Source: a virus
Lineage: Duplodnaviria; Heunggongvirae; Uroviricota; Caudoviricetes
Virus record (IMG/VR): IMGVR_UViG_2778261296_000006
Reading direction: 5' to 3' (one strand)
Length of the DNA: 40,041 bases
Part shown: in pieces, positions 20,223 through 40,041 of the stretch
Layout: every line of letters begins with the position of its first letter
Numbering within the stretch: the first letter of the stretch is position 1
The notes under the pieces: model-generated
Database searches by the model: none
What the model was told of the DNA's origin: nothing
What the model saw: only the letters and a program-made list of their open reading frames with translations
Position numbers and translations under genes: made by a program

Positions 20223-20293
20223 AAACAATTCCAGGCATTGAGTTTTTGCGTAACAAAGTTGATATTGTTTATGTACCAATTACAGGAGGTTTT

Positions 20294-24631: not shown

Positions 24632-24705
24632 TCCCCAACCTCACATCCTGTAATGCATCAATTTTACCTGAATGTCTCGAACCTTGGTATTGCTGTCTCC
24701 AGAAA

Positions 24706-24738
24706 CGCAAAAACCCCACGGTGTTATCCGCAGGGCTT
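24706..24738 (-). terminator. tR'-like terminator downstream of the late promoter region
   Basis: Minus strand CCCTGCGG-ATAACAC-CGTGGGG hairpin (with G-U pairs) followed by TTTTTGCG, located 100-130 nt downstream of the Q stop. Confidence 0.4.
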
Positions 24739-24834
24739 GAAACGAAGGCATTAACCCATCGTTGGGACAAAATTAACACAGATTCGGGAAAAGTAAATAG
24801 CCCAAGACAAAATCATAGGCTATCGCTATAGGCG

Positions 24835-25617
24835 TTACCGCGTTATCTGCTTAAGCTGTTTTTCGGCCCAGGACTCTTCGATATCAAATTTCGTGATCAG
24901 CAGGTCGTAGAATGGCTTAACAGACTTTTTCCAGGTGTCCAGGCTAATGGCGTCAGTAATCTGGCATACAGCAGCATAGGCTTCAGTCGACGGAAGTCGT
25001 TCATACCCACGCCCTCCGCAGCGCTTACAGTCAGCCAGAACAGGAACGCCCTGTTTCTCAGTAAGAGCCTGGTTCACTGCCTTGCCGCGCCCATGGCAAT
25101 CACTGCAAGAAGCACTAACCACACCAGAGCCATTACACTTTTTGCATAGCACTTTGATGGATTCTTTGACCTTCACCATCCCGGACACGGTCATTTTCCC
25201 TTCTGGCTTACGGAATTTATTGGTAAACACGTCAGCCTCAATGAAGCCCTGACCGTCACAACAATCGCACTGCTTCACGCTGGCAGCGCTGCGGGAATAG
25301 TCCTCAAAAGCGAAGGTGGCCAACTGGTGCATCACCTGAGGTTTAACCGCGGCACCGAGCTTACGCAGTGCGGCAACCTTGTCGCATTTTGTCATCGCGT
25401 ACTCAGCCAGCAGACCGATCGCCCGATCCCGGTCGTTATTGCTTATGCCCATCTTGCCGAGGAAGGCGCTGTAACCCATTGCGGCGCGTTCCTGCGTCAT
25501 GCCCATGGCAGCCATTATGTCGGTACCGGTCAGTGAATCGGAGGCGGTAGCGCGCGGAGAATCGCTAATCAGTGTGGATTTAGCGAAGTGGTATTTCACT
25601 GTGTTTTCAAGGTTCAT
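24835..25617 (-). CDS. late-gene antitermination protein Q-like
   Basis: 260 aa with multiple CxxC zinc-finger pairs (CDCCDGQG, CKKCNGSG, CSDCHGRG, CKRCGGRG). Position between the nin-like genes and the lysis cassette. Confidence 0.6.
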   Translation of the reverse strand: MNLENTVKYHFAKSTLISDSPRATASDSLTGTDIMAAMGMTQERAAMGYSAFLGKMGISNNDRDRAIGLLAEYAMTKCDKVAALRKLGAAVKPQVMHQLATFAFEDYSRSAASVKQCDCCDGQGFIEADVFTNKFRKPEGKMTVSGMVKVKESIKVLCKKCNGSGVVSASCSDCHGRGKAVNQALTEKQGVPVLADCKRCGGRGYERLPSTEAYAAVCQITDAISLDTWKKSVKPFYDLLITKFDIEESWAEKQLKQITR

Positions 25618-25750
25618 AGCGCTTCTCCAGCATAAGTTTTCACGTAATTCTTCAGTATCCGGTAGTCCGTTAGCACAGAGCCGGGAAAGTGGTATAAGCG
25701 AAGCCGCTGCCAGCGAACGCGGAGGTGATCGGAAAAACAGGATTCAAATG

Positions 25751-26113
25751 TCATACGGCCTCCAGCCCGGTGATTGTCAGTTCCAGCTTTCCACCTTTGG
25801 TAACGGGCATCTTCACAACGCGATAATCAACGACCTGAGCATCGTCCAGCCAGAAACCTGCTTTGGTGAGTGCGTCAAAAGCGGCCTTTTGCAGATTATC
25901 CAGGTCACGGCGACGGCGATCCGGCATGTGGCACTCAATGCGGATTTTCACAGGCATAGCCAGACCGATATCCAGCATTGAGCCTTTAATGATTCGGGCG
26001 ACGTTATCACGGTATGCCTGCCCTTCTGCGCTGATGTGCGTGCGCCCGCGATTATGCCTGTAGTAGCGGTTATTGCTCGGCGGCCAGGGTAGTGTGATGT
26101 GGTAAGTATTCAC
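25751..26113 (-). CDS. rusA: Holliday junction resolvase RusA
   Basis: GTG start at 26113. [36 protein letters not shown]...[31 protein letters not shown] closely matches RusA as I recall it. Confidence 0.8.
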
Positions 26114-26400
26114 GCCTTGATTACCCCCTCTTTCAGCCAGATAACCTGCGTTCTCGCCATACCTTCCAGCGCGCATTCTTTAGCATACTCAGCATCGACA
26201 AAATGTGTACGGCGGTCGATCTCGTCGTGACAGGCAGAGCATGCAATGGTGGCAATCAGATCAGGCGGTTTGATTCCGGTGCCACATAACCCGGCCAGGC
26301 GAATGTGCGCCAGTACAGACGTTTCCGGGTTACCGTTGCAGACGCCGGGAATTCGAACCTGACAATCACGACCACGAGCCTCTTTGCGTAAATTTGCCAT
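26110..26400 (-). CDS. ybcO: YbcO-like protein (DUF1364, putative nuclease)
   Basis: [42 protein letters not shown]...[11 protein letters not shown] closely matches E. coli DLP12 YbcO as I recall it. Overlaps the rusA start. Confidence 0.7.
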
Positions 26401-26402
26401 GC

Positions 26403-26612
26403 TCACCCCCACGCCTTGCTTTGCCATACCCGGCTCGGGCGAGGCGCGTTATCGCCTTCCGGCAATTGCGCGCTGACGGTCCAGGTGATGTTGTCGCGAT
26501 TCAGGCTGCGCTCTGTCTTTACACCGCGCGCCCGGTATTTCTCCACCAGCTCGTCGGCCTGTTCGGTGGTGCATTCGTGATGGTGGAACCAGGAAAATTT
26601 CATCGCCATCAC
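26403..26612 (-). CDS. hypothetical small protein (nin region)
   Basis: 69-aa ORF, tightly coupled to its neighbours. Confidence 0.3.
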   Translation of the reverse strand: MMAMKFSWFHHHECTTEQADELVEKYRARGVKTERSLNRDNITWTVSAQLPEGDNAPRPSRVWQSKAWG

Positions 26613-27208
26613 CCCGCAAAGCTCATCAGCTGGGCGGCGGCGTTTTCTGCCTCTTCACAACTGCGAAATGATCGGGAGAGTATCCATCGCCACAGAACAT
26701 CGAGCGCGGCTTTGTACAGCTGCTGGAACTCAGTTTCATCCATATTTGCGAATGAGATACTGCGGGGATGTTTGCGGAGGGTGCCGTCAGGCAGCTGAAT
26801 GGCGTCGTAATGGCCGGACTCAATAGTGACCCATGCACGATATGCATCGAATGACTTACAGGCGCAGATGCTACCAGTACGCTTATCGGCGATGCGGTCC
26901 AGATATTGCTCAGCAGCATCCAGGAGTGCTGCTTCACTTCCCGCGAATGAGGCAAGGAACTTGGCATAGCCGGTTACCAGCTTGCGTTCGTTGGAGGAGA
27001 TTGCCCCGCCGGTGGGTTCCCAGTATTCGAAACCGAGATTGAGTAACGCGAAGAAACGACGGTGAAAGGCCGGGTTGCGTACCTGCCGGAACTCAGCCAC
27101 CAGTACGGAGCCGAGTTTGATTTTTGATTGCAGTAAATCACTGGTCTCCGGCGTAGCGGGGATCAGGATTCCTGAGGAATGCTTGATGAGTTGTAGTTCG
27201 TGCGCCAT
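26609..27208 (-). CDS. hypothetical nin-region protein
   Basis: 199-aa ORF in the position occupied by NinB/YbcN-type genes in lambdoid phages. Family not verified. Confidence 0.4.
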   Translation of the reverse strand: MAHELQLIKHSSGILIPATPETSDLLQSKIKLGSVLVAEFRQVRNPAFHRRFFALLNLGFEYWEPTGGAISSNERKLVTGYAKFLASFAGSEAALLDAAEQYLDRIADKRTGSICACKSFDAYRAWVTIESGHYDAIQLPDGTLRKHPRSISFANMDETEFQQLYKAALDVLWRWILSRSFRSCEEAENAAAQLMSFAG

Positions 27209-27242
27209 GGTTTCTCTCCGTGGCGCAGTAGGTTACGGTTGT

Positions 27243-27491
27243 TCAGACCGTTGATTTCATATTATCAGAAGGTGGGGTTACCCGGTAGCCGAGACGGTGA
27301 ATAAACTGCATAAAACCATTAGGAGTAAAGACCTCTTCATCATCCAGCAAAGGCCGCATAGAAACCATGCCATTGACGCGATAAATTAGATGCCTGCCCG
27401 ATGAAGGAAAGCTAAACACCACGCAGCCGTCAGACCTTCTTACAATGTCATACCAGTTGTCTTCTGACGTTTGCAAAGCTGAATCACTCAC
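27243..27491 (-). CDS. hypothetical protein downstream of dinI
   Basis: 82-codon ORF with a GTG start at 27491 preceded by GGGAG. No family recognised. Confidence 0.3.
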   Translation of the reverse strand: MSDSALQTSEDNWYDIVRRSDGCVVFSFPSSGRHLIYRVNGMVSMRPLLDDEEVFTPNGFMQFIHRLGYRVTPPSDNMKSTV

Positions 27492-27608
27492 ATTTATGTT
27501 CTCCCTTCGAGCGACTAACAGACGCGATTAAAGATTGTCGGCAGCAGCATCAGAGGGTTACGCAAATTGCGGTATTCTGAAAAATGCGCGCCAGCCTTAA
27601 GCGCAATT

Positions 27609-27842
27609 CTAATAAAACCAGTCGTCAGCGCTTTCCCAGGTATCCTGGAGGATTGATTCAATTTTCTTTTTATCGTCCTTGTCACCACCAAAAACACTTA
27701 ACCCATCGGCCCCGGCACGGCGGATTGTGAGCCTGCAATTGTCATAGTGATCATTCAGGCGCTTAAGCAGTTCTTTCTCCAGTGCTGGTACTGCGCCTTT
27801 AGGAAGTTCTTTCATGCGATCAATGGTTAATTCAACTTTCAT
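27609..27842 (-). CDS. dinI: DinI-family DNA damage-inducible protein
   Basis: MKVELTIDRMKELPKGAVPALEKELLKRLNDHYDNCRLTIRRAGADGLSVFGGDKDDKKKIESILQDTWESADDWFY aligns end to end with E. coli DinI as I recall it (...ILQETWESADDWF). Confidence 0.8.
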   Translation of the reverse strand: MKVELTIDRMKELPKGAVPALEKELLKRLNDHYDNCRLTIRRAGADGLSVFGGDKDDKKKIESILQDTWESADDWFY

Positions 27843-27860
27843 AATGGCCCCCATTGCATT

Positions 27861-27880
27861 TACTGTGTTTTTATACAGTA
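27861..27880. promoter_or_regulatory. LexA (SOS) box overlapping the dinI promoter
   Basis: TACTGTGTTTTTATACAGTA is a perfect CTGT-N8-ACAG palindrome with TACTGT/ACAGTA arms, about 20 nt upstream of the dinI start. A -10-like TATACT overlaps the box on the minus strand. Confidence 0.65.
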
Positions 27881-27942
27881 TACCTATGCGCGGAAATGAT
27901 CAACGCTTTAAGAGCACAAATTGTTAATTTTCTGTCAGTAGT

Positions 27943-27970
27943 AAAAAAAGAAAACCCGCCGTAGCGGGTT
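27943..27970 (-). terminator. rho-independent terminator (minus strand)
   Basis: AACCCGC-CGTA-GCGGGTT hairpin followed on the minus strand by TTTTCTTTTTTT. Confidence 0.5.
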
Positions 27971-27987
27971 GAATTAGCGATGTTTTA

Positions 27988-28060
27988 TTACGCCGCTATT
28001 TGTTTCTGCTGACAAAGCTCCTGTAGGTTAGCCCTAACCAGCGCCTCAGCGAGCTGATGA
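27988..28060 (-). pseudogene. 3' remnant of a DNA methyltransferase gene (copy A, last ~24 codons)
   Basis: The minus-strand frame ends ...NHQLAEALVRANLQELCQQKQIAA-stop. The DNA is about 80-85% identical to the 3' end of remnant B (28577-28650). Confidence 0.4.
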
Positions 28061-28239
28061 TTGGACAGCATTAACGCAATGGGTAATAGAAACCACAGAA
28101 TGCACGAAATGGCGGTGGTATTCGCCATCTGTGACAGGTTGAATATTGCTCGAATTGTATTGTTTGCACTTTAACGTTTCTGTTGTAGTGCCGGATGCAT
28201 GCCACCGTATGTTCAGGACGATGGCATGCATATTATGGA

Positions 28240-28476
28240 TTACGATTTATCCATTCCCAGGGGATTAGGGTGAATTCCACTTACATGCCAGAACGCATGC
28301 TCTCTATTCAACTGATTTCCCTTTGGTATCAGGAAGCCATACGTCCCAGATTTAAAAGTGGCATGAGCGCAGATTAGACTTTCTCCTTCAAAGCTATACT
28401 CAGTCCCTTCAGGGATTAGAGAGTCAGTCTTGATCAGGTGAACAGTTCCGTTGATAGGGATCATGTAATGGTGCAT
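28240..28476 (-). CDS. hypothetical small protein (78 aa) inserted between methyltransferase remnants
   Basis: ATG at 28476 with GAGGAG RBS 8 nt upstream and a TATAAT hexamer further upstream. AT-rich by eye. No family recognised. Confidence 0.4.
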   Translation of the reverse strand: MHHYMIPINGTVHLIKTDSLIPEGTEYSFEGESLICAHATFKSGTYGFLIPKGNQLNREHAFWHVSGIHPNPLGMDKS

Positions 28477-28576
28477 TTTAGGCTCCTCGTGTTGTGAAGA
28501 GCCTAATTATATCAGGTTTGAATCTACGTCATTGAAGTAGCAGGATTTGTTACACCATGTTCTGAAACTCGGACAT

Positions 28577-28758
28577 TAAGCTGCGATCTCTTTCTGCTGA
28601 CAAAGCTCCGGTAAATTAGCCCTCACCAGTGCCTCGGCGAATGGCGGCGGAACTGCGTTGCCACAACGCGCAACCTGCTTGTCCTTCGCGTACTTCTGCC
28701 CCCGATAGTCCTGATCGATGATGTACCACTCCGGGAAGCCCTGCCAGTTTGGCGTTGT
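28577..28758 (-). pseudogene. 3' remnant of a C5-cytosine DNA methyltransferase gene (copy B, ~60 codons, no start)
   Basis: An open frame without a start codon translates to ...NWQGFPEWYIIDQDYRGQKYAKDKQVARCGNAVPPPFAEALVRANLPELCQQKEIAA-stop. QGFP and GNAV are the conserved C-terminal motifs of Dcm-type methyltransferases. Confidence 0.5.
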
Positions 28759-28817
28759 TCAACCCTGGGTTGTTGCGCAGGGCTGCCAGCACCTGCTCAC
28801 GGATTGTTATGTTCATG

Positions 28818-29507
28818 TCACACCATCCCGTTCGACTTGTTGCGGTTGTACTTGGCCAGCAGCAGCTGGATCGGCGTCGGCCCTTGCTCGGCAGCTGGTG
28901 CGGCAATAGCCCGGCGTACCGGCGGCACTGGCTTACCCTCGGTGACGCGCCTTTCCCACATGTCCAGCAGATCGCCTGCCTCGCGTGCCAGTTCACCATG
29001 CGTTAACTGGCGCTCGGTGCTGCGGTGGCGCAATTCTACGCAAATGTGGTACATGACCGGCTGCGACCATGGAAATTGCTCGCTGGAGATGAATTCGAAC
29101 GAGCGGTTACGCCAGTCCCAGTATTCGGCGATCACCTGGTCAACGTTGACGCCCAGCGCGCCGCCGCTCTGCTTGCACCAGGCGACGAACTGGCCCGGCG
29201 ACGGCAGGAATGGGCGCTCCTGGCGGCGGGCAATGCGCATGCCGGCATCGACCTGAGCCATGGTGTGGATCCCGTTCTCCTGAAACGCCAGCAGCCACTG
29301 ACGGCGGAATTCGTTCAGGTCTTCCTGGGTGCGGAAGTTCGCCATGCTGGCCGGGAACGCGGCGCGCAGCTCGTTGAACAGCTTGTTGAATACCTGCGCC
29401 ACCTGCTCGACCGGCGCGCACTCCTGGTACTGCTCTGGCAGGTTATGGGCCATGCGGCTCATCTGCTCGCGGTCGTGGTTACGCATCTGCTCTGCAAGAG
29501 ATTTCAT
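28818..29507 (-). CDS. P: replication protein P (DnaB helicase loader, lambda P-like)
   Basis: Near-colinear similarity to lambda P as I recall it (...FDREQM.R.A.N.PEQY......VAQ......FPAS.AN.......RRQW.LAF.ENGI.TM.QV.AGMR.ARRQ.RPFLPSPGQFVAWC...). ATGA overlap with the O stop. Confidence 0.85.
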   Translation of the reverse strand: MKSLAEQMRNHDREQMSRMAHNLPEQYQECAPVEQVAQVFNKLFNELRAAFPASMANFRTQEDLNEFRRQWLLAFQENGIHTMAQVDAGMRIARRQERPFLPSPGQFVAWCKQSGGALGVNVDQVIAEYWDWRNRSFEFISSEQFPWSQPVMYHICVELRHRSTERQLTHGELAREAGDLLDMWERRVTEGKPVPPVRRAIAAPAAEQGPTPIQLLLAKYNRNKSNGMV

Positions 29508-30412
29508 CGGATCACCCCATAGGCCCAGTCAGTGTTGTTGAAGTCCAGATCTGGCTTGACAGCGCGCTGCTCACCTCCGGCGTTACGCTGCATTGTCAGC
29601 TTGTCCCACTGCTTACGCAGGCTTTCGGGACTCAGGATGTTGGTCTGCCAGAAGTGGTGTTTGCTAGCCCAGTCATACAGCGCGCAGATGTCCTGGTGCG
29701 ACCGGTTGTCTATCTGGCGCATCAGGCGAACAGTGTTAGACCAGGAGGTCATGTCCGGGGCTTTGCAGGTTGGGTTAATCAGCTTCACCCTGGAGGAAAT
29801 CCACTTAGCTGTCTCGAGGTCTTCAGCAGAGCCCCACTTCGCACCGGATGGTGTGTAGACCGCAGCTTCAGGATGAGTTGATAAAAATTTCTTCAGACGT
29901 GCGTCAGAGGATTCGTCAGAATTCTCGGACGAAGATCTTTTAATACTGTTCTTGTTCTTGTATTGGGTGTCTACCGTTTTCGGGAAGGTTATTCCTGATT
30001 TCGGGAAGGATTTTCCCGTTTTCGGGAATTTTCTTCCCGTTTCCGGTTTGTCTAAAATCCATGCTGAAAGGTCAGTGTTTACACCGACGATTTTCATCAT
30101 GCCCTGCTTCTGTGAAAAGATGATTTTGCGTTCTGCGAGAGACTTAAGCGCGTCCGATACATGCGTATCGCTCAGGCCCGTAAGCTCGGCAATAACCGTA
30201 TTTGTCACGCGGTCCTGTTTCTTGTTCCAGCCGTAGGTAAGCCAGATCACCGCCTCAAAACATTGCCATTCCCGGCCTGACAGTCTCAGGCGAGGCTTAA
30301 GCTGTTGGATCTCGTTAGCGACCTTGGTATACCCGTTCGACAGGTCGGCCATACGACCTCCCGGTTGTTCGGTTTTATTTGGGAAATTGATTATTTCAGC
30401 GGTGTTTGACAT
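29504..30412 (-). CDS. O: replication initiator O-like protein
   Basis: Start at ATG 30412 with GGAGAA RBS. N-terminal region resembles the lambda O N-terminal DNA-binding domain. Iteron-like repeats lie inside the gene. Immediately upstream of P. Confidence 0.7.
   Translation of the reverse strand: MSNTAEIINFPNKTEQPGGRMADLSNGYTKVANEIQQLKPRLRLSGREWQCFEAVIWLTYGWNKKQDRVTNTVIAELTGLSDTHVSDALKSLAERKIIFSQKQGMMKIVGVNTDLSAWILDKPETGRKFPKTGKSFPKSGITFPKTVDTQYKNKNSIKRSSSENSDESSDARLKKFLSTHPEAAVYTPSGAKWGSAEDLETAKWISSRVKLINPTCKAPDMTSWSNTVRLMRQIDNRSHQDICALYDWASKHHFWQTNILSPESLRKQWDKLTMQRNAGGEQRAVKPDLDFNNTDWAYGVIR
29975..30047. repeat. iteron array (putative replication origin) within the O gene
   Basis: Repeated TTTTCGGGAA / TTCCCG units with local dyad symmetry (CGGGAAGGATTTTCCCG, CGGGAATTTTCTTCCCG) at 29977-30046, with an adjacent AT-rich stretch at 29941-29970 that carries a TTCTTG direct repeat. 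Confidence 0.5.
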
Positions 30413-30496
30413 ACTGTTCTCCGCAATTACGCACTGTTTTTGCACCTGAAAGCCGTTGGTGTTCGAGCACCGCGGCTTTCGCCATTTTTGAACCGG

Positions 30497-31036
30497 TCAT
30501 ATAGCCCCCAGCATAATCTGCACCATTTCCATCAACGGACCGGTTAACCCAGGGTCAACGCGATACATCTCCACGATCCCCTCGCTCAACTCTTTCAGCT
30601 TCTGATGACGTGGCGCATCCATTGCGACAGCAATCTTCGCTTCGCTGGTTTCCTTCTCCAGCCTTGCCAGACGAGCCATTACGTTGTCTTCTGGTAGCAG
30701 ACGATTGCGGTATTCAATCGGCAGGACAGCGAGGATTGCCGGCGTCAGCTGGCGGACGTTCTCGCGGTACCGTTCGCTGTTGAAATGGTTATCCAGGAAG
30801 CGGAACAGCTTCTGCCGGGCACGGCTGTGATCTGCCGGAAAGTCGATACCTTCGCCACCTATCCGGTGCCACTCTTCAACGATCAGGGCCGTTACAACGT
30901 CCTGCCCGGCTACTGCTGACCAGGCGCGAACAGCATCACGGAGGGCACCACAACTGACGCCCGGTTTTGGTTGAGCGCGATTTATCAGCGCTGCTGAAAT
31001 GAACCCGTTACTCTGTTGATACGTAAGTGATTGCAT
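30497..31036 (-). CDS. YdaT / CII-like regulatory protein (putative)
   Basis: 179-aa ORF immediately downstream of the cro-like gene and upstream of O, i.e. the cII/ydaT position of lambdoid and Rac-like prophages. Confidence 0.4.
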   Translation of the reverse strand: MQSLTYQQSNGFISAALINRAQPKPGVSCGALRDAVRAWSAVAGQDVVTALIVEEWHRIGGEGIDFPADHSRARQKLFRFLDNHFNSERYRENVRQLTPAILAVLPIEYRNRLLPEDNVMARLARLEKETSEAKIAVAMDAPRHQKLKELSEGIVEMYRVDPGLTGPLMEMVQIMLGAI

Positions 31037-31047
31037 AGTTACATTCC

Positions 31048-31266
31048 TTACTTTGGTAAACCGTCACTTGGGTTTGGATAGAGATCAGGGCGCAGCTCGT
31101 GTGGAGTTACGCCGGTAGCCGCGTAGATTTGAAGGACCCGATCAGCAGGCACCACGCCCTGGTACCGGTTTTTCCAGCGGCTGACCGACATCGGCTTGAT
31201 GCCCAGCATGGTTGCGAGATTTGTTGCAGTGCCAGCGGACTTAATGGCTTTCGTTAACCCGTTCAT
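31048..31266 (-). CDS. Cro / YdaS-like HTH regulator
   Basis: Start at ATG 31266 with GGAGAC RBS. 72 aa, MNGLTKAIKSAGTATNLATMLGIKPMSVSRWKNR... is an HTH-type sequence. Divergent from the repressor gene across the operator region. Confidence 0.6.
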   Translation of the reverse strand: MNGLTKAIKSAGTATNLATMLGIKPMSVSRWKNRYQGVVPADRVLQIYAATGVTPHELRPDLYPNPSDGLPK

Positions 31267-31294
31267 CGTTGTCTCCGATTTGAATACAATCAAA

Positions 31295-31336
31295 TTAAGC
31301 CTGAGACTTAATTTATTGTCAAGCCTGAGGCGAATT
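31295..31336. promoter_or_regulatory. OR-like operator/promoter region (divergent PR/PRM)
   Basis: 17-mer TTAAGCCTGAGACTTAA at 31295-31311 and related GTCAAGCCTGAGG at 31318-31330. A TTGACA hexamer on the minus strand (31322-31317) overlaps the sites and points toward the cro-like gene. Confidence 0.5.
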
Positions 31337-31370
31337 TTCAAGTTTAAGAAAAAGGCTTATTCTTCTAACC

Positions 31371-31757
31371 ATGAAAGAGAAAACCGTACTTAATCCGATA
31401 CTTGTCGAACGCCTTTCAGAGCTGAACGGGCGCGGTATGACCAAATCCGATATGGCCAGGGTTGCTGGGGTAACCCCGCAGTCTGTGAACGGCTGGTTTA
31501 AAAAAGGCGTGATCAGCAAGAAATCAGCTCTCGCTGTCGCTGACGCAGCTGGCGTGTCTGTGCCTTGGTTACTCGGTGAGGATGTCGGCGAGAAGGACGG
31601 ACTTAAGCCGGACGAACAGCGCCTGCTTGAGCTCTACCGCCAGCTGCCAGAAGAAGAGCAACAGAACATGCTCCGCATCTTTTCGATACGTCTTAAGGAA
31701 CTGGATGAGCTGTATGAGAAGTACATGAAGGGGCGGATTCGCTCGCAGGGGGACTGA
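31371..31757 (+). CDS. cI-like prophage repressor (HTH; no S24 peptidase domain)
   Basis: 128 aa. N-terminal HTH (MTKSDMARVAGVTPQSVNGWFKKGVISKKSALAVADAAGVSVPWLLGED), then a short helical C-terminal region. Too short to carry a LexA-like autocleavage domain. Divergent from the cro-like gene. Confidence 0.6.
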   Translation: MKEKTVLNPILVERLSELNGRGMTKSDMARVAGVTPQSVNGWFKKGVISKKSALAVADAAGVSVPWLLGEDVGEKDGLKPDEQRLLELYRQLPEEEQQNMLRIFSIRLKELDELYEKYMKGRIRSQGD

Positions 31758-31842
31758 ATCGCTTTAGGTTTGTCCTGAATTTTTAGTTCCCATGAGACAA
31801 TGATGTCTTTACTGGGGGGTGATTCCGCCATTTATGTTAGAT

Positions 31843-31870
31843 TGAAAAAAACTATCAATTTAATTAATAT
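31843..31870 (+). promoter_or_regulatory. sigma70-like promoter of the immunity-region cargo gene
   Basis: TTGAAA (31843-31848), 16-bp spacer, TAATAT (31865-31870), about 28 nt upstream of the cargo ATG. Confidence 0.45.
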
Positions 31871-31898
31871 TTATCACTACTACACGGGATGTTTTGCA

Positions 31899-33203
31899 AT
31901 GACAGCTGAGATTGTTGTAATAAATAATACTGGAATCGCCCTTGCTGCTGACTCTGCAGTCACCACAGAGCATAATAGATTAGTAAAAATAAATAATAGT
32001 GCGGAAAAACTATTCGAACTATCTAAACACCATCCCGTGGGGATCATGATTTATAATAATGCGACACTGGGTGGCGCACCGTGGGAACTTATAATTAAAT
32101 CCTATAGAAAACAATTGGGGAAAACTAGTTTCCCTACCATTAAAGAATATGTTAATGACTTTGTAAAATTCATCAATGGTAACTCAGACCTTATAACAAA
32201 TGAAATGAGAGAGGCTTGCGTTATAAACCTTGTTGTTGATAACCTCAAAGGTTTGATGAGATACATTAATGATAATAATGTAGTAAACTATTTAACAATG
32301 AACCCCGCCGTTGAACTCGACAATGTTATTTTTCAAAACATAGTTAAGCAAGCCTTTGATTTAGAGATAGAAATCTTAAGGAATAATCTCTTTTTCGAAG
32401 GGTTTGATACAGAAGAGTTTAATGATGCTTTAGCATATATACAAGATTTAATATCGCCATACATTTCATCAATTATTGTTCTTGATAACTGTGAAAATAT
32501 ACAGCAAGAGCTTATGGAAAAAGTCATATTATATTCCACTTGTTTAATTTTCAAAGTCCATGCTAGTCGTACATATTCAGGGATTGTTATAACAGGTTAT
32601 GGAGAGGAAGAATATTACCCTTCCATTTGCACTCTTCATATCTACGGCATTTTTAAAAACAAATTGATGATCCATAATATTAATGATAAATCCCATAATA
32701 AGGTAACCAATATGGGGTTTGTTATACCATTTGCTCAAGAAGATGAAGTAGTAACTTTCATTGATGGGTGCAACCCTAACATCATTAATTTTAACAGAAC
32801 TCTTACAGAGGAAGTTTTTGATCGGCTTAATCATTATGTTTCTAGCAATATTTTCCCTGCAATGAACAATGGAGTACTAGCCAATCACTTCTCCAGTGAA
32901 ATTGAGGAACTCAAAAACGTACTTTTACAAGATCACGATACTAAACTTGAAAGCTATATTGTTAATAACCATACAAATAAAATGATATCGATGTTGCAAT
33001 CACTTGGGAAGGCAGATCTTGCGTATATGGCCGAATCATTAGTGAACATCACTGCATTCAAAAGAAAAGTATCACATGATTATGAAACTGTCGGTGGGCC
33101 TGTTGATGTCGCTGTGATATCAAAAGTTGATGGATTTGTTTGGGTAAATCGTAAACACTACTTCCCTAAAGAGCTAAACTCTAACTACTTTAATCGTCAA
33201 TAA
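31899..33203 (+). CDS. AT-rich cargo protein of unknown function; candidate defence protein with Ntn-hydrolase-like N-terminus
   Basis: 434-aa ORF (MTAEIVVINNTGIALAADSAVTT...), strongly AT-rich versus flanking genes. Lies between the repressor gene and OL/PL with its own promoter and terminator. Start chosen at ATG 31899 because the upstream in-frame extension overlaps the promoter. Confidence 0.5.
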   Translation: MTAEIVVINNTGIALAADSAVTTEHNRLVKINNSAEKLFELSKHHPVGIMIYNNATLGGAPWELIIKSYRKQLGKTSFPTIKEYVNDFVKFINGNSDLITNEMREACVINLVVDNLKGLMRYINDNNVVNYLTMNPAVELDNVIFQNIVKQAFDLEIEILRNNLFFEGFDTEEFNDALAYIQDLISPYISSIIVLDNCENIQQELMEKVILYSTCLIFKVHASRTYSGIVITGYGEEEYYPSICTLHIYGIFKNKLMIHNINDKSHNKVTNMGFVIPFAQEDEVVTFIDGCNPNIINFNRTLTEEVFDRLNHYVSSNIFPAMNNGVLANHFSSEIEELKNVLLQDHDTKLESYIVNNHTNKMISMLQSLGKADLAYMAESLVNITAFKRKVSHDYETVGGPVDVAVISKVDGFVWVNRKHYFPKELNSNYFNRQ

Positions 33204-33220
33204 CACATAAGGAGATATTA

Positions 33221-33325
33221 ATGTCTATAAAGCAAGCTCTCAATAACGCTTATAAAATCATTGTAAATCAAAAATTTGGTAATAAAGAACAGCAGCACTC
33301 GCCGAAAGGATTTAACCAGCAGTAA
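33221..33325 (+). CDS. small basic protein (34 aa) co-transcribed with the cargo gene
   Basis: ATG at 33221 with AAGGAG 6 nt upstream. MSIKQALNNAYKIIVNQKFGNKEQQHSPKGFNQQ. Stop immediately followed by a terminator. Not in the supplied ORF track. Confidence 0.3.
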   Translation: MSIKQALNNAYKIIVNQKFGNKEQQHSPKGFNQQ

Positions 33326-33327
33326 TG

Positions 33328-33357
33328 AAAAAACCCGGCCACAGCGCCGGGTTTTTT
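33328..33357. terminator. strong rho-independent terminator (bidirectional form)
   Basis: AAAAAACCCGGC-CACAGC-GCCGGGTTTTTT: perfect 6-bp GC stem extended by A/T pairs, T6 tail. Confidence 0.65.
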
Positions 33358-33403
33358 ACACCCTCACCCACCATCTCAGCCGCCAACACCCAGCCACGAA
33401 GTC

Positions 33404-33437
33404 CCCGATCTCGACCTTAGCGTCGGGATTTTTTTTG
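33404..33437 (+). terminator. second terminator-like hairpin with T8 tract
   Basis: CCCGATCTCGAC-CTTAGC-GTCGGG followed by ATTTTTTTT. Confidence 0.4.
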
Positions 33438-33461
33438 CCTGCAATTCGGTGAACATCACGA

Positions 33462-33527
33462 TTAAGCCTGAAACTTACAATCACATTTCGCCTGGAGCTT
33501 GACATGATTTAAGTCTCAGGCTTAATA
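33462..33527 (+). promoter_or_regulatory. OL/PL-like operator-promoter
   Basis: Operator-like 17-mers TTAAGCCTGAAACTTAC (33462-33478) and TTAAGTCTCAGGCTTAA (33509-33525, reverse complement of the OR 17-mer) bracket and overlap TTGACA (33499-33504), 17-bp spacer, TAATAT (33522-33527). Confidence 0.5.
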
Positions 33528-33779
33528 TGCAATCACCAAGACGCACCACGAACCACCCAGGCATGGAGCCCACGAAGTAGCCGTCCGGGGCATACGAAGA
33601 CCGGAATGAGGTGGTGAGATTAACGCGCAGTAGGTTTGAAACGTTCCGCCAGCCTGGCGACAAGGGCAAAGCACAGAGTGAGCTTCGCGGTGGTGAATTG
33701 CAGAGTTAAAACGCTCAACCGTGAAGATCAGCGCCGCGGCACCACCAGCGAAGTTCACTCAGAAAAACTGGAGAACATC

Positions 33780-33986
33780 ATGGTTCATCAGCACTACGGT
33801 ACACAGACAGTAAACCGCGGCGCAGTTCAGCCGGGGATGCTCGTCAAACACAAAGACTCAACCTGGACGGCATCAGCTAACGCTCGCGGACGTTTGTATC
33901 TGCATCGCGGCGTAGAAATGACTTACACCAAGGATTTGCTGGTTGAAGTTTATCTGAACGGTCTGGGGCATGGACTCAGCCACTAG
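33780..33986 (+). CDS. small early protein (KilR-like position; hypothetical)
   Basis: ATG at 33780 with GGAGAA RBS. 68 aa. First gene of the PL operon, before the Zn-ribbon and recE-like genes. KilR assignment is positional only. Confidence 0.3.
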   Translation: MVHQHYGTQTVNRGAVQPGMLVKHKDSTWTASANARGRLYLHRGVEMTYTKDLLVEVYLNGLGHGLSH

Positions 33987-33997
33987 CGGAGGATGTC

Positions 33998-34159
33998 ATG
34001 TTAGACAAGAAATGCGGATATTGCGGCAAGCCGGTTAAAACGGAGGAAGTAATCAAGAGCACCCTTCTCTATCGCAACGGCTCACAGCTGGCGCGCAAAG
34101 AAAAAGAGTATTGCTCCAAACGTTGCGCTTCGCACGACCAGATGGCTCACGAAGGCTAA
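33998..34159 (+). CDS. small zinc-ribbon protein (YdaE-like position)
   Basis: 53 aa, MLDKKCGYCGKPVKTEEV...EYCSKRCASHDQMAHEG, with CxxC...CxxxC. Below the 60-aa ORF-track cutoff. Confidence 0.4.
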   Translation: MLDKKCGYCGKPVKTEEVIKSTLLYRNGSQLARKEKEYCSKRCASHDQMAHEG

Positions 34160-34298
34160 CGTAAAACCCGCGCAAGGCGGGATTCACGTCCGGTGCCACC
34201 GACCAAAGTTACACCGGAATTTATACCAAACCAAAAAACATCCAATGGGCGCTATCTCTGGCCCGGGGATTCTAACACTCAAAAAAGAGGATCTCACA

Positions 34299-37207
34299 TG
34301 GAATTTTTCCATCTGATAAAAGCCAGTCAGAAGTCTGGCAAGAAAGATGCAGTGATTTGGTTCACTGCGAAAAGTGTAGCGCGCGCCAATCTCCAACTCG
34401 ATGTGGCACTGGAAGAAGCCGGAATTGAAGAAACTGGCCGCGGTAAAGATTATGCCAAACCAATCCGCACCGATTTCCCGGTATATGACGACCTGCCGGA
34501 AGAAGGCGCAGTGGATTACACCTGGTGCGAACGCTACGAACTGCAGAACGATGACCGCACCTGGCTGCCAAAAGTCACAGCTGAAAACTCTGACGAGAAA
34601 ACGGCTCAGACCGTTGATAGTCACATAACTACTGAGTCAACGCTGCCAGAAACCGCTGGCATCACGCTGGACGAACACGACGACGACTCAACCCTCTACC
34701 CGGTAGTGCAGATGCCGTTTCGTAAGCAACTGCTTTCCCAGTTCACCGCCGACGAACTGCGCCACCACGTAACCCGCGAAGAGTACGAAGCTATCGGCGC
34801 GCTGGAGATGGACACTGATAACAGTTACGTCCAGAACTTGCTGTTAGCTGCTGAGAACTGCCCGGAAGTGAAGGGTTACGACACCAAAGACCTGTGGCGC
34901 TACACCGATGCCATTCGCAAAGTGTTCAGCCAGGACAAGCGTCACGAACTCGCGCTGGTACTCCGTTTCACCAGAATGTGGGCGGCTACTGATTACATTG
35001 ACCGTGGCATCCTGGCGCGTGAATGGGCTGCCGGTAATCACATCAGTAGTGTTCAGCGTACTGATTCCGGAACCAATGCCAACGGCGGTTACGTCACTGA
35101 CCGTGGACCTGATACATACCATACCCTTGACACTCTCGATTTAGAGATTGCATGTGCCCTTCTGCCTATGGACTTCAACCACTTCGAGATCCCGGGCAGC
35201 ATTCTTCGTCGCGCTAAAGAAATCGTGACCAAAAAAGAAGAACCGTGGAAATCATGGAGCAGCATTCTGCGCAATCAACCCGGCGTTCTTGGCGTTAACC
35301 GCACAGCTATTTTTAACCTGATACGTATCGCGCCGGAAAATATTCATCTAACTCCTGTCGCTCACCTGGAGTTTGTTAAGCGGACCATGACTGCTGCGTT
35401 TAATGCTGCTGTTGAGTTATTGCCATTGCATGAAGCTGAGCCCGCAACACAGGAAATTCCCCAACCTGAAAGTAAGGAGTCTCCACGCAAACCCTTCTGC
35501 ACTCACGAAGAGAACCTGCAACGCGTACGTGAAGAAGAAGCACGCCGCCGCGCAGAGGAAGCGACAGCACAACCACATAAAGCCGAACAAGAACTGGTTA
35601 AAAATGTCGGCAACGGAATATTCGATGTTACGGCTTTACTGCAGAACTCAGCAACTCATGGCACGAAACAGGCTACGGAAACCACCAGCAATGTGCAGGT
35701 TCAAGAAACTGTCAGTGATGAAAAAAATGTTGGTAATGAAATGCAGTCAGGCGAAAGCAGTCTGGAAACTGGTGAAGAGTCACATCCCGGCCAGCAGGCC
35801 GATGTAAACCAAAATACGGAATCTGTCGCTCAAAATAGCGATTCTGTAAACCAGACTGAACCAGTTTTGGCACACGTCGAGCCAGAGGCGCAATCTGACG
35901 AACAAGCTGTTTTTTACCCCGATTACTTCGAGCCTGGGCGCTATGAAGGTCTGCCGAACGAGGTTTACCACGCTGCCAACGGCATCAGTTCCACCCAGGT
36001 AAAAGATGCGCGCGTTTCGCTGATGTACTTCAATGCGCGCCACGTTGAGAAAACCATCGTCAAAGAGCGCTCCTCAGTGCTGGACATGGGAAACCTGGTA
36101 CATGCGCTGGCGTTGCAGCCAGAACAGCTCGATGAAGAATTTAGCGTTGAACCCGTAATTCCGGAAGGTGCATTTACCACCACGGCAACGATCCGCGCGT
36201 TTATTGATGAGTACAACGCCAGCCTGCCAGCGCAACTGAGCGCAGACGATATCAAAGCTTTGCTGGATGAATACAACGCCACCCTGCCAGCGCTGGTGCC
36301 GCTGGGCGCTAGCCTGGATGAAACGGCGCAGAACTATATGGCGCTGCCAGCTGAATTCCAACGTATCGATGCAGATCAGAAGAAGACAGCAACAGCAATG
36401 AAGGCGTGCATCAAAGAGTACAACGCCACCCTGCCAGCGCAGATTAAAACCAGCGGCAGCCGCGACGCACTACTCGAACAACTTGCGATTATCAATCCTG
36501 ACCTGGTCGCGCAGGAAGCTCAGAAGCTGCAACCGCTGAAAGTCTCTGGCACGAAGGCCGATCTGATTCAGGCCGTGAAGGCAGTCAAACCAGATGCAGT
36601 GTTCGCCGACGAGCTGCTCGATGCTTGGCGCAACAACCCGGAAGGGAAAGTGCTGGTTACCCACCAGCAACTTGCCACCGCGCAGGCAATTCAGTCAGCA
36701 CTGCTCTCGCACCCGACCGCAGGCATGCTGCTAACCCACCCGAGCCGCGCCGTTGAGGTGAGCTACTTTGGCTTTGACGAGGAGACGGGACTGGAAGTTC
36801 GTGTGCGCCCTGACCTTGAGATCGACCTAGACGGCGTGCGTATCGGTGCTGACCTGAAAACCATCAGCATGTGGAATGTTAAGCAGGAAAGCCTGCGCGC
36901 CAGGCTACACCGGGAAATTATTGAACGTGATTATCACCTGAGCGCGGCTATGTACTGCGAAACCGCAGCGCTGGATCAGTTCTTCTGGATTTTCGTCAAC
37001 AAAGACGAGAACTACCACTGGATCGCCATCATCGAGGCATCCGCTGAACTACTGGAGCTGGGTATGCTCGAGTACCGCAAAGCGATGCGCAATATCGCAA
37101 CCGGATTCGACACAGGTGAATGGCCAGCGCCAATCACTGCTGACTACACCGACGAACTGAACGACTTCGACCTGCGCCGCCTTGAAGCGCTGCGTACTCA
37201 TGCATAA
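34299..37207 (+). CDS. recE: exodeoxyribonuclease VIII-like protein (RecE family, PD-(D/E)XK nuclease C-terminal domain)
   Basis: 969 aa; start at ATG 34299 with AAGAGG RBS. C-terminal region has nuclease-like acidic/Lys motifs (VRVRPDLEIDLDGVRIGADLKT). Followed immediately by the RecT-like gene, as in the Rac prophage recE-recT pair. Confidence 0.65.
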
Positions 37208-37212
37208 GGGGA

Positions 37213-38331
37213 ATGATGATGGAAAACACGAATATCGTAACCGCTGAACAGCAGACTCCAAACACGATCTCAGCCAGCAATGCCATTTTCAACGTGCAGG
37301 CTTTAACCCAGCTTCAGTCTGTCGCCGGGTTGATGGCACAGGCAGCCGTAACGGTGCCTGAGCACCTCCGCGGCAATCCGGCAGACTGCATGGCCATCAT
37401 CATGCAGGCGATGCAGTGGGGTATGAACCCTTACGCCGTGGCGCAAAAGACGCACCTGGTTAACGGTGTCCTGGGATACGAAGCGCAACTGGTTAATGCG
37501 GTGATCTCCAGCTCAAACGCCATCGTTGGCCGCTTTCACTATGAGTACGAGGGCGACTGGTCGAAATGTGCCAGCAGCCGCGAGATAACCGTTAAAAAGC
37601 CTGCGAAAGGTGGCGGGACGTACGACAAGAAAGAAATGGTACGCGGTTGGGAAAGTGCTGATGAACAAGGACTGTCGGTACGGGTAGGTGCCGTTATTCG
37701 CGGTGAAAGTGATATCACCTGGGGAGAGCCTGTTTTCCTCTCCAGCGTAATCACACGTAATTCTCCACTTTGGGTATCAAACCCGAAACAGCAGATCGCT
37801 TATCTGGCACTCAAATACTGGGCGCGCCTGTATTGCCCTGCAGTTGTTCTTGGTGTGTACACCCCTGATGAGATTGAACAGCGCACAGAAAAAGAGATCA
37901 ACCCAACGCCGCAACGCGTTAGCCTGGCTGATATCTCAGGTGACACCGTCACAACCACGCAAAGCGCACAGGAATCGTCGGTAAATGTCGACTCTCTTGC
38001 CGATGATTTCCGCGAACGCATCGAATCTGCTCAGGACGTGGATAGCGCCAAATCGCTGCGTGCCGACATTGAAACGGCGAAAGCTACGCTGGGATCCGCA
38101 CTATTCACCGAGCTGAAAAACAAAGCCGTAAAGCGTTATTACCTAGTGGATGCACGCAACAAGGTTGAGGAGGCTATTAAATCCCTGCCCCAGCCCGACG
38201 AGCCGCATGCAGCCGAACGGTTCGCTGAAGCCGAGCGCATGCTTGCATCTTCAAAGCGTCACTTAGGCGATGAACTGCACGATCAATTCAGCATCACCCT
38301 GGCGGATATGAAACCGGAATACGTGGCCTGA
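37213..38331 (+). CDS. recT: RecT/Bet-family single-strand annealing protein
   Basis: Region GNPADCMAIIMQAMQWGMNPYAVAQKTHLVNGVLGYEAQLVNAVI resembles the RecT/Bet core. Three consecutive ATGs at 37213-37221; the third has the best spacing to the AAGGGG RBS. Confidence 0.65.
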   Translation: MMMENTNIVTAEQQTPNTISASNAIFNVQALTQLQSVAGLMAQAAVTVPEHLRGNPADCMAIIMQAMQWGMNPYAVAQKTHLVNGVLGYEAQLVNAVISSSNAIVGRFHYEYEGDWSKCASSREITVKKPAKGGGTYDKKEMVRGWESADEQGLSVRVGAVIRGESDITWGEPVFLSSVITRNSPLWVSNPKQQIAYLALKYWARLYCPAVVLGVYTPDEIEQRTEKEINPTPQRVSLADISGDTVTTTQSAQESSVNVDSLADDFRERIESAQDVDSAKSLRADIETAKATLGSALFTELKNKAVKRYYLVDARNKVEEAIKSLPQPDEPHAAERFAEAERMLASSKRHLGDELHDQFSITLADMKPEYVA

Positions 38332-38369
38332 CGAGACCGGGAGGGGTAACCCTCCCTCAAGGAGATTAT

Positions 38370-38612
38370 ATGCGACTGATCAATCGAGGAAGTAAGCAAT
38401 CACCTTTAGCTCGCCAAGCATGCGACATCGCGCTGGCAGCTCACTTGCAAACATATGGCGACTATGGGCGAAGCAAGATGAAAGAGACTTATACGGTGAA
38501 GGTTGAAGGCGTGAAAGTCTGGGTGGAGGTGGTGAACCGAAAGGCGAGCTACGTGGCCACAGCGATGACCGGCATGCGCCGTCTCCGCTCCCTGCCCGGG
38601 CAGGTTGGTTGA
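38370..38612 (+). CDS. hypothetical small protein
   Basis: 80-aa ORF with AAGGAG RBS, between the recT-like and xis genes. Confidence 0.35.
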   Translation: MRLINRGSKQSPLARQACDIALAAHLQTYGDYGRSKMKETYTVKVEGVKVWVEVVNRKASYVATAMTGMRRLRSLPGQVG

Positions 38613-38653
38613 AAAAGATTTTGAATGGCCCGAACGGGCAACTGGAGAGAGCT

Positions 38654-38851
38654 ATGGATGATATTTTGGTAACGTCAGACCTGACCAGTCGCTACAAAAT
38701 TTCACGCAAAACCCTTTGGTCATGGCAAAGTGCAGACACAATGCCTCGGGGCTTCGTATGCCCGTTCCCACCCCCTGACTGGCCCGGCAACCCTAACCGC
38801 TGGCGCTCTGAGTCAATCAAAGAGTGGGAGGATAAAAAGAAGATAAATTAA
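38654..38851 (+). CDS. xis: excisionase / AlpA-family HTH protein
   Basis: ATG at 38654 ([24 protein letters not shown]...) is typical of AlpA/Xis-type small HTH proteins. Convergent with, and overlapping by 4 nt, the integrase stop. Confidence 0.6.
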
Positions 38852-40041
38852 CTGAAGGGCTCTCCGATGATCTCTTCAAGATGGCTCTGCCAAACGCGGA
38901 GCCAGTGTTTCTGATCATCGATATAGTCATGAAGGTTGTAATGCGCCATAACCCCCACCATCTGATGCCCGAGCAGCTTTTCAATTACGTGCGGCGGGCA
39001 ACCTAACTCAGAGAGATTTGTGGCTATCGTCCGCCTCATATCATGAAGCGACCACTCTGCCATACCTGTTCCATTCCAAATAGAACGGGCGTAATTGGAT
39101 GCCACAGGTGAATGAACGGGCGAATCTTTGATCCCGCCATCAATTTTACGTTGTGAAGTCACCAGGTGATTGGTGTTTATTTTCTTGAGGTGATTTCTGA
39201 CCAGGTTAACGGCGGCGTCTGAGAGTCCCCTTCTAATATGTACCCGAGTTTTATAACTGCCCGCAGGCACGACCCACTCATTATCATCCAATCGAAACCA
39301 TGATCTCTCACTAAGTCGAATCTCAGCCGTACGGCATCCGGTAAGCATAATAAATTTCACCAGGAAAACGGACTCTATCGACATATGGCTTTTCAACCAC
39401 TGATAGATTTTGCGCAGATCGTCATCGTCCATCCTGCGAGTTCTCTTTTTAGGCTTTTGCCCGACATCAGATGGCAGTAATCCCTCGAGTGGGTTTGAGG
39501 CGATCACACTTCTGTTAACGCAGAACCTAAACGCCCGTTTGCACAGCGAAAGCATGTAATGAGCCATCACCCTGCTTTCTATAGAATCGAAGACGTTGAT
39601 CCAGTGCATTTTCGCTGTGTTATCGACTTTGACATTCTTCATCGGTTCGGCGATATGTTTCTCAAACACCTGGCGATAGTAATCGACTTTAACTAGCCCG
39701 TTAGCGATACAGTGCCTTTCAATCCAGTAATTGAACGCTTCGGCAACGGACATCGCTTCCTGTCGGGTCTGCTTATCCAGCTTCACCTGCTCTCGCGGAT
39801 CCAGTCCCTCAGTTAACCAGTTTCTGAATTGTTGGCGACGCTCTCTTGCCTGGGTGATACTCATTGCAGGATAATCACCAACATTGAGTTTTACCGCTTT
39901 ACCGGCCCAGCGATACCGATAGAAAAATGATATTTTTCCGGCCTGGCTGATTCTGGCGTTGAGCCCGTGCGAATCAGAAATAATCTCGATATCATCTCTT
40001 TTCTTGCCGAGCGCCTTCCTGAGCTTTGTGTCGGTGATCAT
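38848..40041 (-). CDS. int: tyrosine-type site-specific integrase (P4-like)
   Basis: 397 aa starting at the window edge (ATG 40041-40039). C-terminal catalytic region with R...HxxR...Y-type signature ([11 protein letters not shown] ... [18 protein letters not shown]). Confidence 0.85.

Follow-up and report, generated by a model that had tools for sequence, protein, structure and literature searches.

Genes and features of the locus

The stretch of DNA analysed here (the window) is the whole of IMG/VR virus record IMGVR_UViG_2778261296_000006, 40,041 nucleotides long, and it corresponds approximately to one 40-kb Rac/lambdoid-type prophage of E. coli with a tail-fibre invertase at one end and an integrase at the other. 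The subject of this analysis is an AT-rich cargo segment in the immunity region of the prophage, in which a gene for a 434-residue protein related to proteasome beta subunits (gene 1) is followed by a gene for a 34-residue partner protein (gene 2). An earlier reading of the letters of the window, below called the original prediction, had taken this segment for a horizontally acquired, lysogen-expressed defence or exclusion module. The features of the locus are as follows.

31371..31757, + strand: helix-turn-helix (HTH)-only, RacR/cI-like prophage repressor gene; matches Pfam HTH_3 and a PHROG transcriptional regulator
31758..31898, + strand: AT-rich cargo leader with a candidate sigma-70 promoter; guanine-plus-cytosine (GC) content 0.34
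31899..33203, + strand: gene 1, predicted 434-residue proteasome beta-type N-terminal-threonine hydrolase; matches phrog_5990
33209..33214, + strand: Shine-Dalgarno sequence AAGGAG for gene 2, 6 nt before the ATG, read from the sequence
33221..33325, + strand: gene 2, 34-residue hydrophilic partner protein MSIKQALNNAYKIIVNQKFGNKEQQHSPKGFNQQ; unannotated in RefSeq
33328..33357, + strand: terminator 1, strong intrinsic terminator (-18.9 kcal/mol, z -4.5); belongs to the backbone and forms the right-hand recombination anchor of the slot
33407..33438, + strand: terminator 2, terminator-like hairpin followed by T8 (from the terminator scan; energy z -1.3, unexceptional); a backbone feature
33462..33528, + strand: OL/PL region with operator copies at 33462-33478 and 33509-33525 and a promoter at 33499-33528

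The position of the segment is given by a 17-bp palindromic operator, TTAAGCCTGAGACTTAA, which has only three copies in the window where 0.04 matches are expected by chance. One copy (31295-31311) represents the OR side and the other two represent the OL side, where a PL-like promoter (TTGACA-18-TAATAT) overlaps the last copy. The three operator copies together with the PL-like promoter place the cargo segment between the repressor gene and OL/PL, just as had been proposed. According to Pfam the repressor consists of HTH_3 alone and has no S24 self-cleavage domain.

The AT-richness that was visible by eye is fully borne out by computation. The GC content is 0.33 for 31758-33327, 0.332 for the cassette (31842-33325) and 0.34 for its leader, against 0.529 for the rest of the window; size-matched windows average 0.531 +/- 0.028 with a minimum of 0.45, which excludes a flat composition. 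At third codon positions (GC3) the cassette has 0.30 and the repressor gene 0.62.

The 434-residue protein is a predicted proteasome homologue

The ORF (open reading frame) for the 434-residue protein is present as originally described. Searches of Pfam, NCBIfam and PADLOC, and of the PDB with the single sequence, give nothing significant, while phrog_5990, a family with no assigned function, matches the protein over its full length (E 1e-178). Matches to it fall into at least 6,128 clusters at 90% identity, all named 'hypothetical', and a search of 1.84 billion representatives returned 6,045 clusters at 50% identity, of which 3,352 have E <= 1e-30. The best 150 family representatives are 417-457 aa long, and nearly all of them start at residue 1.

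A profile search against the PDB gave sub-threshold matches only, all of them to archaeal proteasome beta subunits at the C-terminal motif, and full-length hhalign recovered this motif alone until two insertions were excised. Once these are cut out, hhalign yields an alignment of 181 columns with the T. acidophilum beta subunit (sequence checked against PDB entry 3c91), in which Thr2 pairs with Thr1, Asp18 with Glu17, and Lys37 (in AEKLFEL) with Lys33 (in GKKLFQI); the GGxIDVAVI motif is also aligned. Among 45 sequences from many phyla the aligned catalytic residues and the GGxIDVAVI motif are at least 95% conserved, and the mean column identity is 0.72-0.85 in the catalytic core and 0.30 in the two helical insertions. 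M1-T2-A3-E4, D18, K37 and a C-terminal TVGGP-DVA--SK-DG motif are invariant in the alignments. In the stretch of the oxyanion Gly47 the family consensus MVYGxG has the glycine and the window reads IYNNA, in a part where the alignment is uncertain.

The first insertion comprises four helices (residues about 97-221) between helix H2 (81-94) and strand S6 (227-233), and the second comprises two long helices (293-322 and 325-368) between H3 (281-289) and H4 (371-391). The remaining fold is a four-layer alpha-beta-beta-alpha sandwich superimposable on proteasome beta subunits, with the threonine nucleophile at the predicted mature N-terminus that follows from the invariant M1-T2. Since there is no propeptide and the protein starts with Met-Thr, removal of the initiator methionine alone would expose Thr1; the maturation of E. 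coli HslV likewise requires removal of the initiator methionine only. RefSeq/PGAP calls the protease gene from an ATG at 31800 (467 aa), which adds 33 residues before the invariant Met-Thr and overlaps the candidate promoter, and many family members in the databases carry the same long start call (for example P0001, 466 aa). Because the Met-Thr start is invariant, the call from 31800 is probably too long.

Judged from these alignments, the gene 1 product is a proteasome-homologous N-terminal nucleophile (Ntn) hydrolase with its predicted catalytic residues intact. It is a PMI-type homologue (PMI-4 or PMI-3, see below), an assignment made by the described insertions and the distribution and not by sequence clustering. 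The original prediction was thus right in placing the protein in no named defence family, as PADLOC, NCBIfam and Pfam are all blank, but the protein is not unrecognisable, being a proteasome-type Ntn hydrolase of a catalogued class (PMC8665760).

A small partner gene follows the protease gene throughout the family

The 34-codon ORF and its AAGGAG ribosome-binding site were found where the original prediction had put them, and the ORF is moreover the conserved second gene of a family-wide pair. A small ORF on the same strand lies downstream of the protease gene in 170/173 homologue loci from Bacteria and Archaea, with its start at about -130 to +60 nt from the protease stop codon, frequently overlapping it, and with a median length of 60 aa (124 unique sequences). 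Loci that seemingly have no partner keep the frame with a non-ATG start; longer ORFs that could have been natural fusions of the large and the small protein were ruled out as such, since the partner frame is still present there with a non-ATG start. An ORF at the partner position is seen for 73/78 target genes and for 107/259 crude control ORFs, so that position alone is only moderately informative. It is clear from a hidden Markov model of the partners, however, that the association is specific: built from half of the diverse genome loci, it matched 20 of the 21,985 six-frame ORFs in the remaining loci, and 20/20 lay directly downstream of the protease gene. The partner is annotated in records of a Providencia phage (58 aa), a Porphyromonas phage (55 aa) and an Enterococcus plasmid (56 aa), and in Streptococcus satellites the frame is present but unannotated.

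The partner proteins are hydrophilic and basic (mean grand average of hydropathy, GRAVY, -0.81; net charge about +4; 12.6% Lys). Many of them carry an EW-KKFNP- or EYEKKYYPESF-like motif followed by an amphipathic helix, and an aromatic-x-Pro or F-P motif is conserved in many partners, in whose place the 34-residue partner of the window has KFG. The latter is a short form of the partner, and its N-terminal half, MS-x-[K/Q]Q-x-x-x-x-AYK...[K/R]F, is kept in 10 unique homologues whose accompanying proteases are 42-70% identical; no shuffled decoys were recovered. Over the first 19 codons the window and the Klebsiella partner differ by 7 synonymous and 4 conservative changes. A likeness of the window's partner to Bacteroidota partners was considered and found to be unsupported, as jackhmmer recruits the partner's own clade only.

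On this comparative evidence the 34-residue partner shows the pattern expected under purifying selection, and the 34-codon ORF is by all appearances a genuine gene, the second of a conserved pair. The conserved small partner gene makes the unit a two-component system. No published report of the pairing of protease and partner was found.

The segment occupies a cargo-exchange slot

The segment is present at >=99.7% identity in 13 of 5,426 complete E. coli genomes, and two further E. coli genomes match 33328/33332-33447 (the terminators) only. Aligned with such sibling prophages, the window is unrelated to them until the first hairpin and identical thereafter through 33447. Between the repressor gene and the same terminators the siblings carry alternative cargo, such as an HTH protein with proteins of 101 and 211 aa, or YoaK, HicA and HicB with a 141-aa protein, or proteins of 84 and 173 aa, with further sets elsewhere. 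Repressors that are 93-99% identical accompany four different cargo sets, and strain ET881 has the same cassette next to a repressor just 87% identical to that of the window, with 100% identity from about 31725 on. As identity sets in within the 3' end of the repressor coding sequence (at about 31725) and again at the first hairpin, the slot is bounded by two conserved recombination anchors. The equivalent slot of the archetypal Rac prophage of K-12 (racR to kilR) holds ydaG, ydaF and the superinfection-exclusion gene sieB.

The slot is thus a genuine hotspot of cargo exchange, and the horizontal acquisition of the segment into the space between the repressor gene and OL/PL is supported both by the GC contrast and by the exchange of cargo among the siblings. 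The suggestion that the immunity slot is a hotspot for defence genes did not hold to the same degree, because the sibling cargos are mostly of no assigned function: among the alternative cargos HicAB alone is recognisable as known defence genes, and the rest are uncharacterised or coiled-coil proteins.

Small co-oriented gene sets are found in the Rac-like slots of the sibling loci L179 (3510-4292), L180 (2987-4114), L181 (3605-3958), L182 (3092-4083) and L002 (4060-5006). Several of the genes in sibling slots encode coiled-coil-like proteins of 170-210 aa with sub-threshold matches only, and are further candidates for lysogen-expressed genes. In E. coli TUM12355 (L001, 3830-5240) the prophage is decayed, a truncated baseplate-J pseudogene abutting a ydaT-like gene, and has lost its replication and late regions, while the repressor, the protease cassette and the recET region are intact at 99.9% identity.

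Promoter and terminators

The original prediction had provided the cassette with its own near-consensus promoter (TTGAAA-16-TAATAT at 31843-31870) and with two terminators. Both hexamers are present, but the first starts at 31842 (31842-31847) and is separated from TAATAT (31865-31870) by a 17-nt spacer. The site agrees with 9/12 consensus positions, and the AT-rich DNA of the region holds 14 sites of this type against 7.1 +/- 2.8 in shuffles. Calling it near-consensus is a weak call, the site being neither above chance nor conserved upstream of the Klebsiella or Rahnella copies. A terminator scan of 31757-31899 detected no terminator-like site between the repressor gene and the cargo, which makes read-through from the repressor promoter plausible. 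A parallel is found in phage lambda, where cI, rexA and rexB are transcribed by read-through from the repressor promoter.

Terminator 1 is indeed strong, and terminator 2 (33407-33438) has its T8 tract but an ordinary hairpin energy. Neither can be assigned to the cassette: both are common to sibling prophages with unrelated cargo and hence belong to the backbone, as the equivalent of lambda tIMM. The picture of a self-contained cassette that brings its own two terminators had to be abandoned, since siblings with other cargo match the window from 33328/33332 through 33447.

Distribution and neighbourhood of the pair

Family loci were found in Nitrospirota, Bacillota, Bacteroidota, Planctomycetota, Cyanobacteria, Chloroflexota, Actinomycetota, Methanosarcinales, methanogens and DPANN archaea, as well as in phages and on plasmids. 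A Klebsiella copy, 70% identical, directly follows an S24-type cI in lambdoid prophages, Pectobacterium prophages have copies near tail genes, and a Vibrio copy adjoins a PLD-like gene and a CTX-like filamentous prophage. The pair lies between Q/Dam and holin in a Providencia lambdoid phage, antiparallel between lysis and tail genes in a Stenotrophomonas phage, among head genes in a Porphyromonas phage, and at the accessory end of seven Streptococcus phage satellites, beside RelBE in Javan421. Plasmid copies occur in Enterococcus and rhizobia.

No conserved third gene was found beside the pair, and its neighbours are heterogeneous. In species-representative genomes the flanks consist of housekeeping genes and a recurrent minority of conflict and mobile-element genes. 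The commonest second or third neighbours are N6_Mtase (4 members) and Eco57I (3), as raw counts; other conflict-type neighbours include MmeI, ResIII/SNF2, type I and III restriction enzymes, DUF1016 and AbiEii-type AAA_21, and further Fic, Zeta toxin, a PD-T4-6-like kinase and integrases. Judged by these settings, the two genes together make up an autonomous moron that was acquired horizontally.

In Vibrio vulnificus (L012, 2646-5297) the PLD-like gene (236 aa) and a 107-aa ORF precede the pair on the same strand, the latter ending 9 nt before the protease start codon, and the group adjoins a filamentous prophage that encodes Zot. This group may be a larger, lineage-specific operon.

The prophage outside the segment

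The prophage is a mosaic. Its early, immunity and recombination half (window 25224-40041) is 99.8% identical to strain Res13-Sevr-PER07-33 (L183), whereas the late (structural) genes in 1-25200 are unrelated to that strain or about 80% identical in short stretches, so that one module of immunity plus cargo has been paired with different virion modules. Among the tail genes of the Res13-Sevr-PER07-33 prophage an antiparallel gene annotated as 'effector-associated constant component EACC1' (L183, 5488-5838) is likely to be another moron; it was ruled out as a gene of the window, from which it is absent and whose late genes differ.

A few other regions of the window drew attention. An AT-rich gap of about 770 bp (27843-28615, GC about 0.44-0.45) between a dinI-like gene and the replication genes holds short ORFs only (<=78 aa) and is unannotated in related genomes. 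A leader of about 250 nt (33529-33779) separates PL from a kil-like gene (33780-33986); in K-12 Rac a small RNA, KilS, is annotated between kilR and sieB, and Rfam shows no RNA family anywhere in the window. Other local GC dips (0.41-0.46) at 4501-5000, 20001-20500 and 24001-25000 may mark more acquired morons.

Proposed role of the pair

The interpretation that we tentatively prefer, in view of the slot and of the elements that carry the pair, is that the pair may be a lysogen-expressed exclusion or abortive-infection module against superinfecting phages, organised like a toxin-antitoxin system. In the lysogen the pair would owe its transcription to read-through from upstream, starting at the repressor promoter, to a weak promoter of its own, or to the two together, and transcription would stop at the backbone terminators. 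Gene 1 would encode a non-ring, substrate-specific threonine protease or transpeptidase. A protease that is born mature would need a restraining or targeting factor, for which the partner is the obvious candidate, and we suppose that the small partner binds to this always mature enzyme and, acting as inhibitor, pseudosubstrate or adaptor, keeps it in check or directs it to its targets. The fast-evolving helical insertions could form a sensing or target-binding surface, and infection by a second phage might be sensed either through them or through loss of a labile partner. The released protease would then cut a host or phage protein site-specifically, whereby the infection would be aborted or excluded, and the pair would fill the role that rexAB, sieB or BstA have at comparable prophage positions.

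In favour of an exclusion or abortive-infection module we count the presence of sieB in the K-12 Rac slot and of HicAB in a sibling, the carriage by satellites, and a modest enrichment of the neighbourhood in restriction-modification genes. Several points weigh against it. Neither protein matches any PADLOC-DB 2.0 model at E <= 1, and NCBIfam is blank too; Pfam detects in the 34-residue partner no DNA-binding domain typical of type II antitoxins; and jackhmmer from this partner recruits its own clade only, so that its homology to the longer partners is not demonstrable. With sibling cargos that are mostly functionally unassigned, the slot is not established as a defence hotspot, many chromosomal neighbours are housekeeping genes, and the enrichment of defence genes is uncalibrated against a control. 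Finally, the study in which the class was catalogued found neither a genomic context nor a co-occurrence that hinted at function (PMC8665760).

An alternative, which we consider unlikely on balance, is that the pair is a selfish addiction (toxin-antitoxin) system with no anti-phage role, in which the protease is the toxin and the small protein its labile antidote, and where post-segregational killing stabilises prophages, satellites and plasmids. The tightly coupled two-gene layout fits such a system, as do the single copies scattered among unrelated neighbours, including housekeeping genes, in the manner of toxin-antitoxin loci. The presence of the pair on plasmids and satellites (once beside RelBE), HicAB in the same slot of a sibling, and the retention of the cassette in the decayed TUM12355 prophage point the same way. 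On the other hand, the putative antitoxin has no DNA-binding domain and the enzyme-first gene order is a minority arrangement in type II systems; many toxin-antitoxin systems are also anti-phage, so that addiction overlaps with the exclusion module rather than excluding it.

An equally doubtful possibility is that the small protein is a substrate, which the enzyme cleaves or transpeptidates, in the manner of connectase, into a peptide, a tag or a modified protein with a physiological or signalling role. No transporter, immunity or further modification gene is conserved nearby, and the partners are hydrophilic and Lys-rich and have no leader/core organisation. Moreover, the window's partner has KFG and lacks the aromatic-x-Pro motif, and the fold, in which H1/H2 are kept, is nearer to proteasome beta and Anbu than to connectase.

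It is more improbable still that the protease works to the benefit of its own phage or satellite, for instance in counter-defence or host takeover, where it would break down defence or stress proteins of the host, or in the processing of a protein of the phage. The family does have a PHROG, and lytic-cycle units contain some of the copies, that of the Providencia phage lying between Q and holin and that of the Porphyromonas phage among head genes. Most of the approximately 6,000 clusters and of 80 species-representative loci are chromosomal, however, including archaeal ones, with no phage neighbours; within phages the position of the pair varies, unlike that of a morphogenetic protease; and the pairs of the window and of Klebsiella point the same way as the repressor gene and precede the immunity terminator, a position expressed in the lysogen.

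A dedicated anti-repressor protease of the ImmA/ImmR kind, which would cleave the adjacent HTH repressor and induce the prophage, is essentially excluded: the repressor lacks an S24 domain, the co-oriented protease gene comes directly after it, and the exact repressor allele of the window is found in E. coli only with the cassette (12/12 genomes), but these 12 are copies of one prophage, the ET881 repressor agrees at 136/137 residues with that of ECCWS199, where unrelated cargo without a protease fills the slot, and is 93% identical to another beside a third cargo, the Klebsiella homologue follows a self-cleaving S24 cI, and most family members have no adjacent repressor.

Beyond the prophage of the window, we regard it as possible, with rather less confidence than the exclusion module itself, that a threonine protease with a tiny partner is the effector of an unrecognised prokaryotic immune or toxin-antitoxin-like class of about 6,000 clusters in Bacteria and Archaea, spread by prophages, satellites and plasmids. 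If such a class exists, the proteasome fold has been recruited to antiviral conflict in prokaryotes, in the form of a non-ring protease whose insertions sense the invader.

Significance

Prokaryotes hold an "astonishing wealth" of proteasome homologues, whose discoverers had no genomic context that could guide experiments on their role. The family described here appears to have been known previously as an entry in an in silico catalogue only, and its two-gene organisation and its lifestyle as a moron of prophages and satellites appear to be unreported. The partner gene is one lead, and the lifestyle as a mobile moron in prophage immunity regions, satellites and plasmids is a second one. The copy described here, being carried by a prophage of E. 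coli, opens the function of such homologues to direct tests in a routine host. If the exclusion or abortive-infection role is true, a threonine Ntn protease would be a new enzymatic class in bacterial immunity, with a function for about 6,000 uncharacterised clusters; if the protein is instead a specific ligase or processing enzyme, it may be of biotechnological interest, like connectase.

Comparison with known systems

Fuchs, Alva and Lupas presented in 2021 an in silico catalogue of 22 new families of proteasome homologues (PMC8665760), among which PMI stands for 'Proteasome homologs with Multiple Insertions', with HDY66466.1 and OGZ26396.1 as published representatives. PMI-4 is the abundant variant and is found in most bacterial phyla, Euryarchaeota and phages, and the sites of the PMI insertions should hinder the assembly of rings and double rings (PMC8665760). 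The gene 1 product shares with PMI-4 and PMI-3 the proteasome-like core, the Thr1/Asp17/Lys33 triad and the absence of a propeptide, and also the two insertions, a long one after H1/H2 (the pore-loop site) and another between H3 and H4. With PMI-4 it further shares the absence of an AAA+ unfoldase and a broad, patchy range over Proteobacteria, Firmicutes, Actinobacteria, Bacteroidetes, the Planctomycetes-Verrucomicrobia-Chlamydiae (PVC) group, Cyanobacteria, Euryarchaeota and phages. What sets it apart from PMI-4 and PMI-3 as published is the small gene conserved downstream and the existence as a moron in prophages and satellites. The family has also become far larger, from 501 sequences at the time of the catalogue (PMC8665760) to about 6,000 clusters at 50% identity now. 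A literature search, which included large defence screens and the papers citing PMC8665760, found nothing on a function or defence role of PMI-type homologues.

In comparison with the beta subunit of the 20S proteasome, HslV, Anbu and BPH (MEROPS family T1), the gene 1 product has about 200 extra residues in two helical insertions; it has no alpha subunit or unfoldase partner, is accessory and mobile, and has a small protein as its partner. Another proteasome homologue, connectase, is monomeric and ligates proteins in a sequence-specific manner; it resembles the gene 1 product in helical additions that are expected to gate the active site and to confer high specificity, and like connectase the gene 1 protein probably forms no ring. 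It differs from connectase in a fold that is nearer to proteasome beta and Anbu, with helices H1/H2 kept. The inhibitor PI31 blocks the active sites of the proteasome partly by means of a proline at P1', which resists cleavage (PMC13022661). This pseudosubstrate inhibition is a mechanistic analogy only; the Pro motif of the partners is comparable, there is no homology, and the partner of the window has KFG.

Type II toxin-antitoxin systems such as HicAB are likewise compact, coupled two-gene cassettes whose genes travel together between prophages, plasmids, satellites and chromosomes, but here the large component is a homologue of threonine proteases with 434 residues and not a known toxin family, and in the small one neither a DNA-binding nor an antitoxin domain can be recognised. 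As regards position, the pair resembles lambda rexAB, sieB of Rac and P22, and BstA in being co-oriented with the repressor, within the immunity region and upstream of a tIMM-like terminator and OL/PL. There is no relationship in sequence or fold to any of these, and a membrane-spanning protein like RexB is absent here, because the partners are hydrophilic, that of the window has 34 aa, and there is no match to Pfam or defence models; through its putative anti-phage role the pair would be their functional counterpart.

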